Origin: a virus
Lineage: Duplodnaviria > Caudoviricetes
IMG/VR virus record: IMGVR_UViG_3300035499_000517
Span: 193,735 to 257,734 of that record
Length of the DNA: 64,000 nt
Reading direction: 5' to 3' (one strand)
Shown here: positions 2,991 through 44,068 of the stretch, in pieces
Numbering within the stretch: the stretch's first letter is position 1
Layout: every line of letters begins with the position of its first letter
The notes under the pieces: model-generated
What the model was told of the DNA's origin: nothing
Seen by the model: the letters and a program-made list of their open reading frames with translations, nothing else
Database searches by the model: none
Position numbers and translations under genes: made by a program

Positions 2991-4222
2991 TGGGATTTAA
3001 TATTGGAGAGATGTTATCTCAGGCTGAAAGAGAATCTTTAGCTGCGGAATTAGCACAGTTAGAAGAAGATGAAACTTTAGCCGAGGAGTATAATTATGAT
3101 CAGTATTTAAAAGAGCATGATCCAATCAATGCCAGTAGAATTTATCCGGAAAATCCAGAAGATCAATTTGGTGTTAAGGTTGGAAAAGATGAAAAGGAAG
3201 AGGAAGATACTTTCTCTTCCAGAAGAATTACCGATGAAGATATCGAAGCAGCGGCTCCGAAGTATTATCCAAAGGAGAGAGTGTATCGGAGCTTGTTGCT
3301 TGAGATCTTTACCGTAGAGCAGGCAATGGAAATCGAGAAGATTCAGCGTACGTTTACCATCACGAATAATCAGAAGATTTCTCTATATCGAGAGAAGTTG
3401 GATGAATGGGGAAAAGAATATTCCCCATTAGGTGGTGGAACGAATCGTTGGGCAGGAATGGTCGATGGATATGTAATAAAGATTGCATGTGATGATGATG
3501 GAAAGATTGATAATAAGCGAGAGTTTATTTACTCAATTCCATTACAACCATATGTGATCAAGTGTTATGAGACATATGCAGACGGACTCATTGCAGTGTT
3601 TGAATATGTAGAAATCTTCACAATCGATGATTTCTGGAAGAACACGATTCGTATGGGAGAGATTCTTACAGATATTGCAACAGATTTCATGATTGGTGAT
3701 GTTGGAATTAATTCTACGAATTATGTAAACTGGGGATTTCGAGATGATGGAAGCATTGTAATCTTGGATTATGCATACATCTATTCTGTAAAGTTTAAGC
3801 AGTTCCAGTGCCAATGCTCACCAAGTTCTGTTCTTTATTATGATAAGGAGTTTAATAATCTGATTTGTAATACATGTGGAAAGAAGTATTCGTTCCGCGA
3901 TATCAGAAAACGAATTTCCAGGAAAGATCAAGAAGAAGAGATTGGTGATATCAGAGAGAAAGGCTATATATTAACTCAAACAGAGGAGTCAAAGCCGTTT
4001 AATCCAAAATTCGTACATGGGGCGTATGCAAGAATTTACAGCAAGATTAAGAAAGAACGTAAGAAGTCTGGAGAATCTATGTTTAAATTTGGGCGTCGAC
4101 ATGTCAATAACAATGACCCAGCTCCTGAAACATTCGAAGAATTCGAAGATCGTTTAGCAGCTGGTTATTATGATAATGCTTTAGAGCAGTACAAGATTAA
4201 GGAGGAAAATCAAAATGGGTAA
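2990..4222 (+). CDS. protein kinase-like protein with C-terminal Zn ribbon
   Basis: LGGGTNR glycine loop, VIKIA lysine, NKRE helix-C Glu, GD...VNWG catalytic loop, LDYAY (DFG-like), CQC...CNTCG. Confidence 0.7.
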   Translation: MGFNIGEMLSQAERESLAAELAQLEEDETLAEEYNYDQYLKEHDPINASRIYPENPEDQFGVKVGKDEKEEEDTFSSRRITDEDIEAAAPKYYPKERVYRSLLLEIFTVEQAMEIEKIQRTFTITNNQKISLYREKLDEWGKEYSPLGGGTNRWAGMVDGYVIKIACDDDGKIDNKREFIYSIPLQPYVIKCYETYADGLIAVFEYVEIFTIDDFWKNTIRMGEILTDIATDFMIGDVGINSTNYVNWGFRDDGSIVILDYAYIYSVKFKQFQCQCSPSSVLYYDKEFNNLICNTCGKKYSFRDIRKRISRKDQEEEIGDIREKGYILTQTEESKPFNPKFVHGAYARIYSKIKKERKKSGESMFKFGRRHVNNNDPAPETFEEFEDRLAAGYYDNALEQYKIKEENQNG

Positions 4223-5885
4223 AAAGAAAGGCAAAAGAAGATGGACAACGAATGAGATGAAAGGGGACCTGAATGAACAGGCCCTCTTTTCTGATTCGGC
4301 ATTAGAGGAAATGATTCGCAAGCAGTACGGTGTGAGATCAGGAAATGCACCGATGGCAACAAAAGAAGCTTCACAGAGAGTCATTGATGAAGCATTAATG
4401 GAGGTTGGTGTTCCGAGAAGACAGGAGACTCCGAGGAATTATCAGACTCCGGTTGAAACAGTTGCACCTGCACCAAAGCCGGTTGAGCGTCCTGTATATA
4501 CAGAACAGCCGAAGGCTCCAGTAGTAAATGAGAAGCCTGAAGATGCAAATAAAGGCACGACAGTTACTGTCACAATGTCTTCCGAGTCCCTTCCATTCGT
4601 ACAGGATATTGAGCGTGGTGGAAAACTTTTCATCCAGGTTCATGATTGGGCTGGTAACTGTCTGATGATTCCTTATGCAAAGGAAGGAGCGGAGGAATTC
4701 TCTGTAAGAAATATTCCACTTGTAAATGATGGAAGAACCGATGAGGAGCAGATCCAGGGGTCTCTCATGTCACTTGCCTATGGAATGGCAAGTTCCCATG
4801 TACTTTGGGGAATGCCGTCGCTTATCATGGATAAAGAGGAGTTTCATGAAGAAACACTTCACCATGATGTCGATGTAATCGACATGAGATATACAACACT
4901 CTGTATTTCAGATGATGCGCCGGAATATGTTTTCGGTTATATGATTCCGGATCGTTTGATAGATGAGTGGATCGATATTATCAGCGATCATATGGATGAC
5001 CCGGATGCACTCATCCTTACACTCTCTACATTACAGAGACAGATGCATGAGCTCCGCTGGATTAACTTCAAGGATATGTCCGGTGGATTATCTTGCTATA
5101 TGGAAGAGCTTCTGGATGAGAAAGACATCACCAATTTCTTTGAAGGTATCAAGGATACAATGGAGTACGATGAGGAAGGCGTTCTTCAGAATGCAGAGTT
5201 CCTGGCTCCAATTACTACAGCAACAGACATCGATGAATGTATGTTCTATGGGCTTGGGACCATGTTCAACATCTACAGAGATCCTGATGAGAAGTATCCG
5301 GCAGATGAGAATTATGATGATTCTGAAGATGCTGCACCAGAGGAAGAGAATCCATATGATCAGGCACCGAATGGGACCGAAGCTGCAATGACCCCGGAAG
5401 CATTAGCTGCTTGGGCTGCACAGTATAACAGTGAACACAAAATCGGTGGATACGTAAATCCAGACGCGGAGAACGCAGAAAGAGAAGGTGCATCAGTTGA
5501 TGATGCCAGCTTTCCAGCAGACGCCGCTAACACAAGAGCAGATCTTTCAGATTCTTCAGCAGAAACCGACAATGTTCAAGTACACAATGAACATGCTGTA
5601 TCAGATGGGGCTGGGAACAGATACACAGATTCGAGCGATGATCGAAATGTATCTCCGGTCGAGGGAAACAGAGAAGGAGCAGCGGAAGATGATGAAAGAA
5701 GTAGCTCACAATCAGTCGGATATCAGCAGGATGTTGTACCAGCAGAAGAAGAAGTCGAAAAAGAGAGAGAAGAAGAACGACGTGAAGAATCTTCTGAAGC
5801 ACACGAAGTACAAAAAGCAGAAACCTCTGAAGCGAAAGAAGAAGTAGACGAAGATCAGATGATCATCGGAGTCAACAGAGGTTAA
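4215..5885 (+). CDS. hypothetical acidic protein with basic N-terminus and disordered acidic C-terminus
   Basis: 556-aa ORF, RBS AAGGAGG. Confidence 0.85.
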   Translation: MGKKKGKRRWTTNEMKGDLNEQALFSDSALEEMIRKQYGVRSGNAPMATKEASQRVIDEALMEVGVPRRQETPRNYQTPVETVAPAPKPVERPVYTEQPKAPVVNEKPEDANKGTTVTVTMSSESLPFVQDIERGGKLFIQVHDWAGNCLMIPYAKEGAEEFSVRNIPLVNDGRTDEEQIQGSLMSLAYGMASSHVLWGMPSLIMDKEEFHEETLHHDVDVIDMRYTTLCISDDAPEYVFGYMIPDRLIDEWIDIISDHMDDPDALILTLSTLQRQMHELRWINFKDMSGGLSCYMEELLDEKDITNFFEGIKDTMEYDEEGVLQNAEFLAPITTATDIDECMFYGLGTMFNIYRDPDEKYPADENYDDSEDAAPEEENPYDQAPNGTEAAMTPEALAAWAAQYNSEHKIGGYVNPDAENAEREGASVDDASFPADAANTRADLSDSSAETDNVQVHNEHAVSDGAGNRYTDSSDDRNVSPVEGNREGAAEDDERSSSQSVGYQQDVVPAEEEVEKEREEERREESSEAHEVQKAETSEAKEEVDEDQMIIGVNRG

Positions 5886-17584: not shown

Positions 17585-18775
17585 TAACACAGGCACCCTT
17601 ATGCTGAAAAGCATATGCCAAAACCTCTCTAATTGCGGGGACGAATCCGTAAGCTTCAACTACCAACCGAGAGTGGTGACATTCTTGGGGCAAAGGGTAA
17701 CTCCGGAGATATGGTAATCAAGGTTGAAGTTGGATCAATCGACGCAACGAAGACAGAAAAATTATGAGTATAGTATTAGATTACAAAGAAGCATGGATTT
17801 ATATTAACGGATGTAAAACTAAATACAAGATTGCATCTCCCGGTTATGTATTTATTGCAGAAACTGGAAAGAAGATGGCTGGTGGTTTGGATAAAAATGG
17901 ATACAGGATTGTATCTCTTACTTTTAATGGAAAGAAATATACAAGGAAAGTCCATAGACTCGTTGCCGAGGCATTTATTCCAAATCCTAATAATTATCCT
18001 GAAGTAAATCATGAAGATGGAAATAAGGATAATCCAGACATTCATAATCTGACTTGGTCAACATCAGCAGAAAATACACATCATGCGTATAGGACTCATT
18101 TGAGGAAAGGAAACCTGAAAGATGAGAAGATTGTACGTGAGATTTGTGAAATGCTTCAAAATGAAGTTCGAGTTGGAAAAATATCAAAGAAGATGCAAGT
18201 CAATCAATCATATATCTCTAAAATTAAAAATGGTACGATTTGGAAGAGTGTTTCTAAGGAGTACTATTTTCCAAGAGATAATGATACAAGAGCGTTGATA
18301 GGTGAAGAAAATCCTATGGCTAAAGTCTCTGTAAAGGAGGTAAAGAAAATTTGTAAGTTGTTGGAGAAAGGGAAAACAGCTAAAGAAATTTCGAAAAAGC
18401 TAGGGATATCTATGACGATAATTTACTCTATCAAACAAAGAAAAACTTGGGTAAGCATCAGTAAAGAATATAAGTTCTAAAGGAAAGGTGATTGATATGA
18501 AAAATATAAATCATAAATCCATGCAATCTGTAAATCGCTGATAATTATTTCTGTTGTGTTCAACGACTAGGGAAAGCTAGATATCAGCATTGAGAGAAAT
18601 CTCTAAATACAATTTGTAGGCTGGTTGAAAATAAGGTAGATTGAAATATCTACACGAAGCAAGTAGGCTCAATAATAGAGCGAAATGTAGGCTGAAATAT
18701 GCCCAAACGGGAGGCAATGATATATCTGGTAATAGGATATATAATTGATGATATAGTCTATCCTAGAAATAGGAG
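17585..18775 (+). mobile_element. group I intron gyrB-I1 (1191 nt) with HNH ORF
   Basis: P1 exon GGUGU/IGS GCACC with U.G; AATTGCGGGGA (P), CAACGACTA (R), ATATAGTC (S), P9 TCCTA-GAAA-TAGGA, terminal G; splicing restores frame. Confidence 0.9.
17764..18480 (+). CDS. intron-encoded HNH homing endonuclease
   Basis: KVHRLVAEAFIPNP...VNHEDGNKDN...NLTW plus two C-terminal helical repeats. Confidence 0.9.
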   Translation: MSIVLDYKEAWIYINGCKTKYKIASPGYVFIAETGKKMAGGLDKNGYRIVSLTFNGKKYTRKVHRLVAEAFIPNPNNYPEVNHEDGNKDNPDIHNLTWSTSAENTHHAYRTHLRKGNLKDEKIVREICEMLQNEVRVGKISKKMQVNQSYISKIKNGTIWKSVSKEYYFPRDNDTRALIGEENPMAKVSVKEVKKICKLLEKGKTAKEISKKLGISMTIIYSIKQRKTWVSISKEYKF

Positions 18776-20031: not shown

Positions 20032-20479
20032 TCTGGAGACCATAGTTCGTCTAAAACTTGCTTAACTGCGGGGAAATTTTACCGTGACAGGTAAACGCAT
20101 CTAAGATGTGCTGGTTAAGCTTCAACTACCAACTTGGAATGGTGACAGTCCAAGGGCAAAGGGTAACTCCGGAGATATGGTAATCAAGGTTGAAGATACA
20201 GATAATCGACGCAAGGAAACATCTCACAATGATGAGATATGACTTCAACGACTAGGGAAAGCTAGACAACCAGGATGAGAGAAATCTCTAAATACATTTG
20301 TAGCTGGTTTGAAAATAAGGTAAGTTGAAATACTTACACGAAGCGAGTAGGCCTAAGATAGCAGGCGAAAGGTAGGTTGAAACAAACCGAAACAGCAAGC
20401 TTTATTATATCTGGTAACAGGATATAGTAAATGAAGATATAGTCTGACCTTAATAGAGATATTAAGATTAACACAAGTG
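20032..20479 (+). mobile_element. group I intron gyrB-I2 (448 nt, ORF-less)
   Basis: P1 GACGGAU/GUUCGUC (U.G), P10 ACCAU/AUGGU, AACTGCGGGG, CAACGACTA, ATATAGTC; splicing gives DADIDGYGI...RYMP. Confidence 0.9.
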
Positions 20480-39119: not shown

Positions 39120-40462
39120 TCAAAATACACCAAAGACATCTCCGTTATTTCCAGATACAACCCCTGGATCATATCCATTTAATTCATCAAATGCATCCAT
39201 GTTTTGTGAACCAAAATCAAAGAATGCATCTTTATCTGGTTCCAGAGTATTATCCAAACCGGCATTATCAATTAAGCCTTTCTTATGTAAGGCTCTTGTC
39301 TTTTCTTGCTCTCTCATGAGAGTTTCTCGGTAAATGTCTTCATAGGAAGGTTTACTTTGTCGTTCAACCTCTAATCGCACTGTATCAATAACAGACTCTG
39401 GCAATGCTGAATAATCGATCTCTTCTGGTCGAAGCATTCCAGTATTTCGTTCTTCCTGCTGATACAATATATCTTCTTTTGAGAATCCAAATACTTCTAA
39501 GTTATTTCCATAATAATAAACATACATGCCAATGAGATATGACATGATACTGTCATCATGGAATCCTACAGCTGCTTGGATCTTTGTTCCTTTCATAACG
39601 AGCTTTGTAATATCTCTTGTGACATTATGCCCAACGAAATCCTCTTTATGAGTCTTAATACGATCAGCCAAGATACTAAACATGACTTCACGAGATCTCA
39701 CATCGGTATAAACACCATAATTAGATTTCTCTTTTGCTTTCTTCTTTAATACAGATTCTACTGTATTTAAATCATCCATTTTCTCTTCTGCAAGTTTTTT
39801 AAACTTATCAAAGTATACTCTACCAGCAATATCAGATTCCATCAGGAATGCAATAACAGAATCACCAACAGAGTTACGCTCGATACAAAGGATTGCTCTT
39901 GGTATATGCTTCTTTACAAGCTCTACAATACACCTGATGAATTCAGGCTCACCAACATAAGAGCATTCGAATTCCGCAACTAATTTTGTTGTATAAGGAT
40001 TTATGATAGACATCGCATTATTATCACCACCGGTTCCTGTAGAACAGTCAATGCCGACAATGTAAGGGATGCCTCGGACAAGTTTTTCGTAGATATTAAG
40101 ACGATAGTATTTACAGATCATGATCGTCTCAATCGGCTTCTTTTCAAGCTCAATGATTCGATCCATATCATCACGATCATAGGGAGAATTAGAAGAACCG
40201 CGAAGTCTTTGTAATAAGATCTCGCGGCGAACAACCAATTTATTATTGATTTTATTGGCAATATTTCTAAACCATTCAAGGGATAATCCAATTTGTTGAT
40301 AAGAGTATTCCATATAAAATACTCCCATCTTATTATCTTTAACAGATAATTCCCTTAACTCATCTATAGATTTATTATAAAATAAATCGTTCCACACTGC
40401 ACATTTTGCAAGAAGCTGTTCTGCCCTTGCACCTGCATCAGTGTCGATGTCTCCAGGCGTTG
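39120..40462 (-). CDS. terL: terminase large subunit, exon 3 (nuclease domain)
   Basis: (S)TPGD, YIVGIDCSTG, DNNA, CIERNSVG, HDDSIMS. Confidence 0.88.
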
Positions 40463-41628
40463 CAATAGTATGAAACTATTTAGACTATATCTTCATCTCT
40501 AAAATAGAGAGCCCCCCGTTTCGGTTTCTTGATATTATCTCACCTACATTTCGTCCTATGATTGGACCTACTCGGTTCAAGCACTTTCTGCTTGCCTTTC
40601 CCTAGTCGTTGAACTTACACCCAATGCTTTTCGAAGATTTCGCACTTTATCACTAACCCTTTTCCCTATTTTGTCTTTTGTCGTTTTACCACCAAAATAT
40701 TTTACAATAGTAGTGGTTTTACAACCTGAAAGTATCATTTCTTTTATTTTATCCTCTTCTTCTTTCGTGAATCTTTTCTTTGTTTGAGATAAAACAGAAT
40801 TTGGTATATCATACTCAGAACTGATTTCTTTATGACGTTTACCGGATTTTATGGAGAATACTAATGCATATATAGCGTTATTTGTAACCTTTGTTTCTCC
40901 AGTTAATGCACAATAAGTTTGAAAACAGTCCATTCCAGATTCAAGGGATTTGCAAATGAATCTAACTACTTCTTCATTATACACTGCATTTGGTGCATTC
41001 ACACCAGAATTTACTTGAAGTCCCATTCGTAATGCATGTCTTGTATTTTCTCCACTTGTAGTCCACTCTAAATTCTTATAATAATTATTCGTTTTATCTC
41101 CGTCCATATGATTCACCACATTCAATTCATCATCATGCTCAGGAAGAAATGTACTTGCGACCATCCGATGAACTGCAACAGGAGATTTTAATCTCTTTCC
41201 ATCAATATGTCGAATGATCCCAATTCGTTTATATCCATCCTTATCATAATGAAATTTCAATTCTTTTACTCTTGAAAAAGAGAATACTTTTCCGTAATTA
41301 GATATTACGTATTGATACTTTACAATTCCAGGGTATTTCAAAAATCTAAATTCTTCATCATCATGTTCTTTAAATTTATAAAATTCTTCTAAAAGTTTAT
41401 TCATGTGAATAATCACCTCCGTTAGATAAAAGTTGTGGTGATAATTATTCACACAAATGGGTGATTAGCTGCGGATCGATCTATCTTTAACCTTGATTAC
41501 CATATCTCCGGAGTTACCCTTTGCCCCAAGAATGTTACCACTCTTGGTTGGTAGTTAAAGATTTTTAGAAAGTCCCCGCAGTTAGAGGGGTTTGTATTAC
41601 AGGTCACCCTGTAATCACGCCGCATTTA
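40463..41628 (-). mobile_element. group I intron terL-I2 (1166 nt) with HNH ORF
   Basis: P1 UCACGU/GCGUGA (U.G), AACTGCGGGG, CAACGACTA, ATATAGTC, P9 AATAGT/ACTATT, terminal G; splicing gives ILTSTPGD. Confidence 0.9.
40577..41404 (-). CDS. intron-encoded HNH homing endonuclease
   Basis: YVISNYGKV, AVHRMVASTF, VNHMDGDKTNN...NLEW; ATG after GGAGGTG; C-terminus overlaps intron core. Confidence 0.9.
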   Translation of the reverse strand: MNKLLEEFYKFKEHDDEEFRFLKYPGIVKYQYVISNYGKVFSFSRVKELKFHYDKDGYKRIGIIRHIDGKRLKSPVAVHRMVASTFLPEHDDELNVVNHMDGDKTNNYYKNLEWTTSGENTRHALRMGLQVNSGVNAPNAVYNEEVVRFICKSLESGMDCFQTYCALTGETKVTNNAIYALVFSIKSGKRHKEISSEYDIPNSVLSQTKKRFTKEEEDKIKEMILSGCKTTTIVKYFGGKTTKDKIGKRVSDKVRNLRKALGVSSTTRERQAESA

Positions 41629-42075
41629 ACGTGAGTATTCGCCCGTAGATTGCTCCGACCTCCGCTGATTTACGTGATGCAGTTTCAAACGTAGATACAG
41701 AGTTTTCAATAATGACATCGATATATGGTGTAAACTCCACCTCATCAAAATGAAGAATTGGTGCAGTCAAACCACGACCCATGCCGAGTGCTGCTTCATA
41801 TGAAATAGCTTTTGCGCGAACAACGATTTCATTTCCTGTAACAGGATGCTGATATCGTGTTGCACTCTTCTTTGATTTGGTAATTTTTCCATCTTCTTCC
41901 ATAATGGATTCGTAACGTAAATATACTGGTAAGCACGATATGATATCACCGAAATCTCTAAGATTTGTCTTTGCATTATCACCATCTTTATTGATGAAGA
42001 TGAATGTTGACTTAGATGTTCCAAATGAATATGCCCATGTTTGTGCTGCTAGTGCTGACTTTGTTTTACCTTGTT
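41629..42075 (-). CDS. terL: terminase large subunit, exon 2 (ATPase)
   Basis: QGKTKS Walker A half, GRGLT, LHFDEVEF Walker B. Confidence 0.88.
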
Positions 42076-42396
42076 CATAACTTAGACTATATCATCATCC
42101 GATTTCTCGGAGCCTCCCATTTCGGATTATTTCACCTACATTTCGCCCTATGATTGAGCCTACTCGGTTCAAGTATTTCTACTTGCCTTTCCCTAGTCGT
42201 TGAAGCTTCGTCTTAATTTCTTAGGATACTTGCTTGCGGATTTTCTCTATTCTTAACCTTGATTACCATATCTCCGGAGTTACCCTTTGCCCCAAGAATG
42301 TCACCACTCTTGGTTGGTAGTTAAGACATAACAAGACGTTCCCGCAGTTAAAGAGGTTTTTCCAATCCATTGCTGGATTTCGCGGCAACAAGGTTC
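42076..42396 (-). mobile_element. group I intron terL-I1 (321 nt, ORF-less, atypical)
   Basis: AACTGCGGGAA, CAACGACTA, ATATAGTC; P10 ACCUUGUU/AACAAGGU; splicing restores LPRQQGKT. Confidence 0.85.
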
Positions 42397-42796
42397 GCCG
42401 AGGTAAACAGAGCCAACTATCTAGTCCGTGTAACAAGCACCAAGTTTGTGCTATATTTCCACGGTTTGCTATATAAGGAACGCCTTCTGGAGAACCAGCA
42501 GATGGTATCCTTACAACTTCCCTTAAATAGTACCAGATATTATGTACGCACTCTATCGTGATTCTTGAAATCTGATCTTTTGTCAGATCAGGTTCATCTG
42601 AATCTTTCTTCGTCTTGAAAGGATCTACATTGACAAGATACGGATCTTTGATCTCAAGCATAAAATACCATTCTTTTACACCAAGAGTTTTTAAGTCCAG
42701 TGCAACTTGCAAGAAGGATTTATTCTTGGTACCAGTATCGTAATATCGTCCTTTAATACAGATAATCCGATTTTTCGGAGTACTTGTATTATCCAT
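42397..42796 (-). CDS. terL: terminase large subunit, exon 1
   Basis: TKNKSFL, ECVHNIWYYLREVVRIP, NRGN, LPR; spliced product 729 aa. Confidence 0.85.
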
Positions 42797-42814
42797 AGTA
42801 TCACTTCCTTTCTT

Positions 42815-42870
42815 TAAAATTAAGTCTTCGAAAATAAATGGCATTTCATCATAGGTTTGACAAGTTTTTA
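42815..42870. promoter_or_regulatory. divergent late-type promoters (- GACT-N6-TA 42815-42826; + GACA-N6-TA 42859-42870)
   Basis: Motif copies before terL and AAA ATPase. Confidence 0.45.
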
Positions 42871-42892: not shown

Positions 42893-44068
42893 ATGAGAGA
42901 CACATTGACAAAGTCAACGTCAGATGTTCTGACAAGTCAAATTAACAAAGTAATTGACAATATGAGAGATGTGCTTCATCTTACAATATCAATATCAGAA
43001 TTTGATGAAGCATATGAGAAGTTTCATGCGGTGATTTATAAGATGAATAAAGAGCTGTATGAAAAGCATAGAATGCCTACCGTAAATCCGAATTACTATG
43101 ATTTGACATCTGGTGCACATTACACAATTCGTGTGGGAAGATTTACATGGATAGAGGTTAGTGCTGTATTAGAGGACCATTATGGAAGCAGTCATAAAAC
43201 GACATGCTTGCTTATTTATGGAAAGAATAAAGAGAAAGTCCGCTCTGTTATTTTAAAGAGAATTCTTGAGAATACAGATGATGATATTAAAATAAAGAAT
43301 TGCGGAAGATATGGAAGTACTTCTATATACCGAGTAAGTCCAAGAGCATTGAATTCCATTGTGCTTCCGATTGAGACAAAGAAGAATCTCGTAGCTGGAT
43401 TATATGGTTGGTGGAATTCAAAAGACTGGTATGAGAAACACCATTTGATTCATAAGATTGGTGTTCTTTTATATGGAGAACCTGGAACTGGAAAAAGTAC
43501 GATTGTAAAAGCAATTAGCACGATGTTTCAGAATGCTCCGATCATTATAATCAAATCAACTGATGTAGAAGATGGTTTATCTACAATTTTAAGAGAACGT
43601 GAAAAGACGGTTGGTCCAATCATTATATTATTTGAGGATTTTGATATGTTCTTTTACGACAGAGATCAAAAGCCAGCAAATACAAATCAAACAAATGAGA
43701 TGCAACCTGGCGTTGTTGTAACGACATCTGAAAGAAATAATAGTATGACAGAATCTCAGAATCTGGTATTCCAGATGTTGGATGGGAATTATTCAACTGA
43801 TGATACAATTTATATAGCTACGACCAATCATATTGAAAGGTTGGATAAAGCGCTGATTCGTTATGGACGATTTGATATTCAAGAAGAAATCAAATGCTTT
43901 GATAAAGAATTAACCATGAAGTTTTTAAATCAATTTGGTTATGGAGAAGGGTTTTTTAATAAGTATCTTACCGATGATGATTTACCGATTCAGCCAGCGA
44001 AGTTACAGGCGATGATTATGAAACATCGGTCAATGCAGATTATGAAGAAAAGAGGCGGGTTATCTTGA
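42893..44068 (+). CDS. BCS1-like AAA+ ATPase
   Basis: WY...GVLLYGEPGTGKS, ILFEDFD, LDG, ATTNH..RLDKALIRYGRFD. Confidence 0.85.
   Translation: MRDTLTKSTSDVLTSQINKVIDNMRDVLHLTISISEFDEAYEKFHAVIYKMNKELYEKHRMPTVNPNYYDLTSGAHYTIRVGRFTWIEVSAVLEDHYGSSHKTTCLLIYGKNKEKVRSVILKRILENTDDDIKIKNCGRYGSTSIYRVSPRALNSIVLPIETKKNLVAGLYGWWNSKDWYEKHHLIHKIGVLLYGEPGTGKSTIVKAISTMFQNAPIIIIKSTDVEDGLSTILREREKTVGPIIILFEDFDMFFYDRDQKPANTNQTNEMQPGVVVTTSERNNSMTESQNLVFQMLDGNYSTDDTIYIATTNHIERLDKALIRYGRFDIQEEIKCFDKELTMKFLNQFGYGEGFFNKYLTDDDLPIQPAKLQAMIMKHRSMQIMKKRGGLS

Follow-up and report, generated by a model that had tools for sequence, protein, structure and literature searches.

The terL gene in the 64-kb stretch of giant gut phage DNA analysed here (the window) is split, within the Walker A motif of its product, by a 321-nt group I intron (terL-I1) that has neither a U·G wobble pair at its 5' splice site nor a P9 hairpin. 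To our knowledge, both features are taught as near-invariant in group I ribozymes, and the natural exceptions that we know of are single cases. The locus raises the question of whether such an intron can splice, and on what terms. An initial annotation, made from the window alone, had taken it for a minimal and crippled or assisted ribozyme, acting as a regulatory bottleneck or needing help from sister introns. We find that terL-I1 belongs to the group I introns and is IA-like in build, and that the U·G pair and P9 are typical, non-universal features of such introns.

Joining of the three terL exons, with terL-I1 and a second intron (terL-I2) removed, gives a TerL protein of 745 amino acids with no internal stop (Table 1). 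Matches to PHROG terminases identify the product, whose nearest annotated relatives are the TerL proteins of Bacillus phage BpSp and phiKZ-like phages, and no second copy of terL was seen within the window. Translation of unspliced terL RNA yields a stub of 193 amino acids. Gene callers present terL as a 193-aa unknown protein and fragments, and terL-I1 itself falls under the Rfam gathering score of 50, as do its four sister introns (two in gyrB, terL-I2 and one in dnaB), three of which carry HNH ORFs; at the gathering threshold Rfam gave no match anywhere in the 64-kb window. An intron-encoded endonuclease, a trait of mobile introns, was looked for in terL-I1, and no ORF was present. An AAA ATPase gene (42893-44068, plus strand) lies divergent from terL, an arrangement that is kept in L232, L235 and L238-L240.

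Table 1. Positions in the window of the terL exons, of terL-I1 with its structural elements, and of the sister introns.
Feature	Position	Strand	Description
terL exon 1	42397..42844	-	last base C, which opens the Gln codon of LPRQQGKT; second possible start 42796
terL-I1	42076..42396	-	group I intron, no ORF of its own; RF00028 47.5 bits, E 5.5e-9 (Rfam)
P1	42383..42400	-	exon CGGC (42400-42397) with guide GCCG (42386-42383)
P10, guide half	42387..42394	-	8 Watson-Crick pairs with 3' exon 42075-42068
P2 hairpin	42364..42379	-	GNRA loop: GCAA; GUAA in other strains
P4 and P5	within 42235..42346	-	P4: 42346-42341 with 42240-42235; P5: 42336-42333 with 42247-42244
P5abc-like extension	42251..42326	-	P5a, A-rich bulge, P5b hairpin with GNRA loop (42313-42292), P5c-like part
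P7	within 42084..42200	-	42200-42194 with 42089-42084; bulged C, G-C guanosine site
3' end without P9	42076..42083	-	possible one-pair P9.0 (A42083-U42077), 5-nt loop, terminal G42076
terL exon 2	41629..42075	-	53% identical to intronless TerL of L005
Sister intron terL-I2	40463..41628	-	U·G, P9 present; HNH/NUMOD4 ORF 41452-40577
terL exon 3	39120..40462	-	
gyrB intron 1	17585-18775	+	group I, U·G, P9; HNH ORF 17764-18480
gyrB intron 2	20032-20479	+	group I, U·G, P9; end 13 nt past Rfam match
dnaB intron	57698-56526	-	group I, U·G, P9; HNH ORF 57440-56625

As the initial annotation had stated, the joined exons restore the motif LPRQQGKT, and among the 17 in-frame junctions that use the terminal G only 42397|42075 does so. 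The same motif is the commonest one in intronless relatives (29 of 47 distinct junctions). A sequencing error had been named as a possible refutation. However, C42397 was seen in 11 contigs and the 9-nt tail of the intron in 12 (assemblies rather than raw reads, from 12 JGI samples and with three haplotypes), so the bases of terL-I1 are not sequencing errors.

The P3-P4-P5-P6-P7-P8 core of terL-I1 is complete and in the right order. The splice-site pair is C42397-G42386, in place of the U·G wobble that the four other introns of the window possess, as had been observed before. G42396·U42387 and A42395-U42388 form P1ex, and the 8-bp P10 is directly stacked on the 4-bp P1; the earlier hint that this long P10 matters is borne out. 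Between the strands of P7 lie a P7.1/7.2-type insert, the 3' strand of P3 and a 5-bp P8 with a GAAA loop, and the guanosine site consists of G42198-C42085 beside the bulged C42199. The extension in P5 is one that we liken to the P5abc domain of Tetrahymena, and P5 itself retains a CU:AG receptor though the L9 loop is gone. The description of a 9-nt tail after P7 without P9 was right about the missing hairpin, but the first U of that tail (42084) still belongs to a P7 pair. Only 7 nt thus separate P7 from the terminal G, with no hairpin among them; one A-U pair of P9.0 is possible and is kept in both tail alleles. By eye, no hairpin able to replace P9 was seen in the 3' exon. The word 'minimal' does not suit an intron with P2, a P5abc-like domain and a P7 extension, when introns at the same site are as short as 198 nt.

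Introns of subgroup IA (T4 td, SPO1 or Twort type) have extra helices between P7 and the 3' strand of P3, and an A-U pair beside the bulged C. In terL-I1 a 75-nt insert with hairpins is found between P7 and the P3 3' strand, and an A-U pair is likewise placed beside the bulged C of P7; we class the intron as IA-like only, because L9 is absent and the P5abc-like domain is atypical of IA. Minimum free energy folding of the whole intron was no better than that of shuffled sequences (z -1.0), as expected from the P3/P7 pseudoknot. Seven differences between strains were found in terL-I1. GNRA loops are preserved in two of them, pairs become wobbles in another two, and two more fall in the terminal loop; the seventh replaces a C·A mismatch in P6a of the window allele by a pair, as in L007. 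Such a pattern is in line with selection on structure.

The C at position -1 is forced by the protein, since it begins the Gln codon, and with AA or AG in the 3' exon a U would give a UAA or UAG stop. For the same reason, C-to-U editing would be no cure for the splice site. The codon at the junction begins with C in all 47 distinct intronless junctions. Introns at the same site were gathered by scanning viral, metagenome and genome contigs and by protein look-ups, and all 27 distinct complete ones (198-1292 nt) end in G and have the pair C(-1)-G. At the terL Gln codon the reading frame continues into intron sequence in about 64 protein clusters, versus 53 that are intronless, and the third base of the junction codon is always A or G, as Gln requires. 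At this site 5 of the 9 P1/P10 pairs change on both sides, in 23 such cells (counts that are inflated by related rows), while the C-G pair is invariant; this covariation was exceeded in 0 of 500 shuffles and lay above all slid controls. The rows L072, L074, L084 and L178 were excluded as false. Two of the intronless alleles, L118 and L124, read PRRQGKT in place of PRQQGKT, with a codon that still starts with C. P0124, in which the codon is TGG, was considered as a reversion to U(-1) and rejected, as its contig is frameshifted and intronless. Two terL relatives occur in Lachnospiraceae MAGs, a hint at the host group.

The first intron base lies opposite a U that later pairs with the 3' exon. 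A G(+1)·U pair held in the first 24 sequences, and was considered as an obligatory compensation for C-G; it was then dropped and is a preference only, as G is found in 56 of 64 protein clusters and A(+1) in 8 of 64, as well as in L232, L233 and L236. The U·G intron L207 also has G(+1)·U.

How does the C-G site compare with U·G sites? Its P1 is short, at 4-6 bp, and has about the stability of the U·G helices, mostly of 5-10 bp, found at six other sites in terL, a comparison in which the 5' ends of L184, L003-I2, L058/L059 and some others were misplaced. The U at -1 was fixed by the reading-frame pattern for 5 of the 6 other sites, so that the count of 37/37 U·G pairs there is partly by construction, with a free search in agreement at most of them. 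In a tree of 78 cores (P3-P7), the C-G-site cores do not form one clade (9 changes, at least 5 of them forced; AU p 1e-7) but are intermixed with U·G-site cores, and the J4/5-J5/4 variant of terL-I1 recurs in L085, a core from another site. This scatter indicates that ordinary cores serve the C-G site. Exchange between sister introns has affected these trees, and we draw no direction or donor from them.

Several other features were seen among these introns. The same-site intron L089 has a 276-aa ORF at 3692-4522 that looks HNH-like by eye, so homing probably targets this insertion site in some lineages. L001 (4443-4903) and L089 (3443-4734), both at the same site, have an A·C mismatch in which C of the P7 3' strand stands opposite A beside the guanosine-binding pair. 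The Walker A introns of L049, L051, L054, L058 and L059 show a compensatory double change in P7 (GAUCA with UGAUC). In L233 (640-1120) the 5' part of the Walker A intron joins the 3' end of the next terL intron and exon 2 is missing, which reflects either a true deletion or an assembly error between similar introns.

Loss of P9 has a different distribution from that of the C-G pair. The hairpin is present in 24 of the 27 same-site introns, nearly always with a GNRA cap, and the L003 same-site intron has a weak 4-bp remnant; complete absence is limited, within this set, to the lineage of the window. The tail of terL-I1 looks like a clean deletion of P9 from forms such as L062 and L125. Introns without P9 and with U·G were found at other terL sites (L012, L015, L034, L038, L050, L054 and L060, with tails of 7-16 nt) and in other genes (L195, L197, two in L207, and L213), the tails overall being 5-16 nt long. 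Since automatic junction calls were unreliable for one set of introns, only hand-checked junctions were used. The P9-less introns do not form one clade (6-7 changes, AU p 7e-6), and P9 was lost at least six times in this intron family, with U·G in every case outside the lineage of the window. As most C-G introns keep P9 and the other P9-less introns have U·G, the two traits are independent and each is recurrent. Their meeting in one intron is what is special about terL-I1.

The shortest tail seen belongs to the dnaB intron L213 of the nearest relative (G001, minus strand), which has 3 bases between P7 and the terminal G. It is the orthologue of the P9-containing dnaB intron of the window, is devoid of the HNH ORF, and has U·G and a 5-bp P10. 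In introns that keep P9, the L9 loop is GAAA with a CC:GG receptor in P5 in L112 (3371-3703) and L125 (2453-2769), and GAGA or GUGA loops mostly go with a CU:AG receptor, L058 and L059 being exceptions. The 249-kb phage G003, the genome of L012, has about 20 intron P7 motifs, several of them tightly clustered with very short exons (L192, L195). In the Goslar record, an HNH gene follows immediately on the intron core.

What could make up for the missing hairpin? P9.0 is A/U, AA/UU or AC/GU in the P9-less terL introns, and 1-2 pairs are found in most other P9-less introns. P10 has a median of 8 bp without P9 versus 3 bp with it (p 0.003, uncorrected for kinship), with exceptions in both directions: L112 and L125 have 7-8 bp despite P9, and in two P9-less introns P10 is no longer than 3-4 bp. 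In the P10 comparison the 5' ends of L049 and L054 were misplaced, as were those of the introns named above for P1. The P5abc-like domain is present in 9/9 P9-less cores of the tree versus 19/69 P9-containing cores, and 5 further P9-less introns also carry it (14/14 in total); when kinship is allowed for, the link is non-significant (3:0 of 5 independent pairs, p 0.25). Two compact introns of L003 (4398-4595 and 4945-5153), which have no P5abc, 14-15-nt tails and at most a weak A-U stem, are borderline cases for this link. P5abc stabilises the core of the Tetrahymena intron. The P5abc-like domain is a plausible substitute for the L9-P5 contact. Earlier work cited in PMC11417360 found that the second step can proceed with P9.0 or P10 by itself, and that loss of either one alone is tolerated.

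Taken together, these comparisons make it likely that terL-I1 is a working group I intron, one that would splice in cis through the two conventional steps. The guide would pair with the end of the exon, and free guanosine in the P7 pocket would cut after C42397; P1ex would then yield to the 8-bp P10, the terminal G would enter the pocket, and the joining of the exons would restore LPRQQGKT. The C-G pair, imposed by the exon, would be tolerated on ordinary cores with a short P1, and P9 would have been deleted later, in the lineage of the window. Choice of the 3' site presumably rests with the single P9.0 pair, the long P10 and the very short link to P7, and loss of the L9-P5 contact is probably offset by the P5abc-like domain. 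The Anabaena intron takes C or U at -1 (PMC12355055), while non-U·G pairs usually cut efficiency and increase cryptic splicing (PMC11417360), and P9 has been termed essential (PMC3873408). The first step may run several-fold slower than with U·G, and general host RNA chaperones may help. The term 'crippled' finds no support, as the C-G pair is set by the Gln codon and shared by all same-site introns, most of which have a normal P9 hairpin, U·G sites too show repeated loss of P9, and the strain differences keep the structure. We offer more tentatively a wider proposal, that gut jumbo phages harbour a natural class of group I ribozymes which sheds P9 repeatedly, down to 3 nt between P7 and the terminal G, with a P5abc-like domain or a phage factor replacing the L9-P5 contact, to which terL-I1 would add efficient wobble-free C-G docking, and so the targeting of C sites.

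Splicing in vivo may instead need a specific protein cofactor of phage or host origin in the place of P9, much as weak fungal introns depend on CYT-18, and repeated P9 loss in jumbo phages would then reflect this factor. The loss of P9 at least six times in one phage group and the tail of just 3 nt in a near relative favour this, and protein help is known for bacterial and phage introns (PMC3984707). However, the P9-less introns have the most peripheral RNA structure rather than the least, P9 is kept, with covariation of loop and receptor, in most introns of the same genomes, and L007 keeps terL-I1 though it does not have the HNH ORF of terL-I2. No candidate factor was identified, and we consider a dedicated cofactor rather unlikely. 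Provision of the missing P9/L9 contact, or of catalysis, in trans by sister intron RNAs is much less credible. The four sister introns share long sequence blocks with terL-I1, the P5 receptor has survived its loop, and the distribution would allow such help, since all the P9-less introns seen come from genomes that also have sister introns. Against it, the guides of the sister introns match their own exons only, terL-I1 has a complete core and guanosine site of its own, and P9 sits covalently between P7 and the terminal G, so that an intermolecular stand-in would presumably be weak. Dependence on sister introns is also unsupported by a 96%-identical relative that does not have the HNH gene of the neighbouring intron and keeps terL-I1.

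A C-G pair reduces the reactivity of the 5' splice site in model ribozymes. Selection could thus have favoured a slow first step as a regulatory bottleneck, one that reduces or postpones TerL and so times DNA packaging, a reading to which the stub encoded by unspliced RNA, interrupted within the ATP-binding motif, and the cost of non-U·G pairs in general (PMC11417360) lend some weight. The codon, however, fully explains the C, as the 47 intronless junctions attest, the close relatives L087 and L088 have no intron at all, and no condition-sensing element was seen; we regard selection for delay as improbable, though slightly less so than help in trans. Least probable of all is that the junction differs (with cutting after G42396, a terminal A and the product LPRRQGKT), that the intron is dead or that the sequence is in error. 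Such a junction would agree with the G opposite U at the start of most same-site introns and with the PRRQGKT of two intronless alleles. Yet the A(+1) of eight protein clusters and three further introns (L232, L233 and L236) does not fit, the third codon base is always that of Gln, a reversed G-U pair abolishes activity of the Anabaena intron (PMC12355055), and identical bases in 11-12 contigs speak against error. Splicing in cis by terL-I1 itself thus stays our preferred reading.

Two fungal mitochondrial group I introns with C·G splice sites, in the cox1 genes of Aspergillus nidulans and Podospora anserina, were reportedly described by Hur and Waring in 1995 (NAR 23:4466) and are said to cleave unaided. 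[quoted passage not shown] Whereas they are two organellar cases, the site here is that of a phage, holds introns of at least 27 distinct sequences whose cores come from several lineages, has U barred by a stop codon and includes one lineage that also does without P9. A natural group I intron modelled without P9, like terL-I1, is Pr.rnl.1 of Prasinoderma coloniale mitochondria, for which trans-splicing was confirmed by RT-PCR (PMC3873408); it is an rRNA intron in two pieces, possibly three, whereas terL-I1 is continuous, belongs to an mRNA and shares its site with relatives that contain P9. The nearest annotated DNA match (73% over the core and P5 extension) is to the DNA polymerase introns of Staphylococcus kayviruses (phage K, A5W; the I-KsaIII intron), which differ in lying in another gene and in having an HNH ORF. 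Gut Jug jumbo phages (PMC12880540) are alike in having many introns per genome and a split terL, with RNA reads supporting splicing of 37 of 76 introns, but they are T4-like Bacteroides phages with introns of about 206 nt, while the TerL studied here is nearest to BpSp and phiKZ-like phages. In our literature search, which covered few subscription journals, we found no phage C-G site family, no repeated P9 loss tied to P5abc and no intron with both traits.

All four combinations of U·G or C-G with or without P9 occur here among cores that are closely related, and some form orthologous pairs between phages that are 96% identical. With this natural two-by-two set one can test how much a living gene gains from the wobble and from the L9-P5 contact, and whether their loss is made good by P5abc or P10. 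A C-tolerant compact ribozyme would also broaden the targets for trans-splicing and circular-RNA tools. The value of the family lies in a natural test of two ribozyme rules, rather than in a new mechanism, and the terL site shows that an intron site can persist where the codon forbids U.
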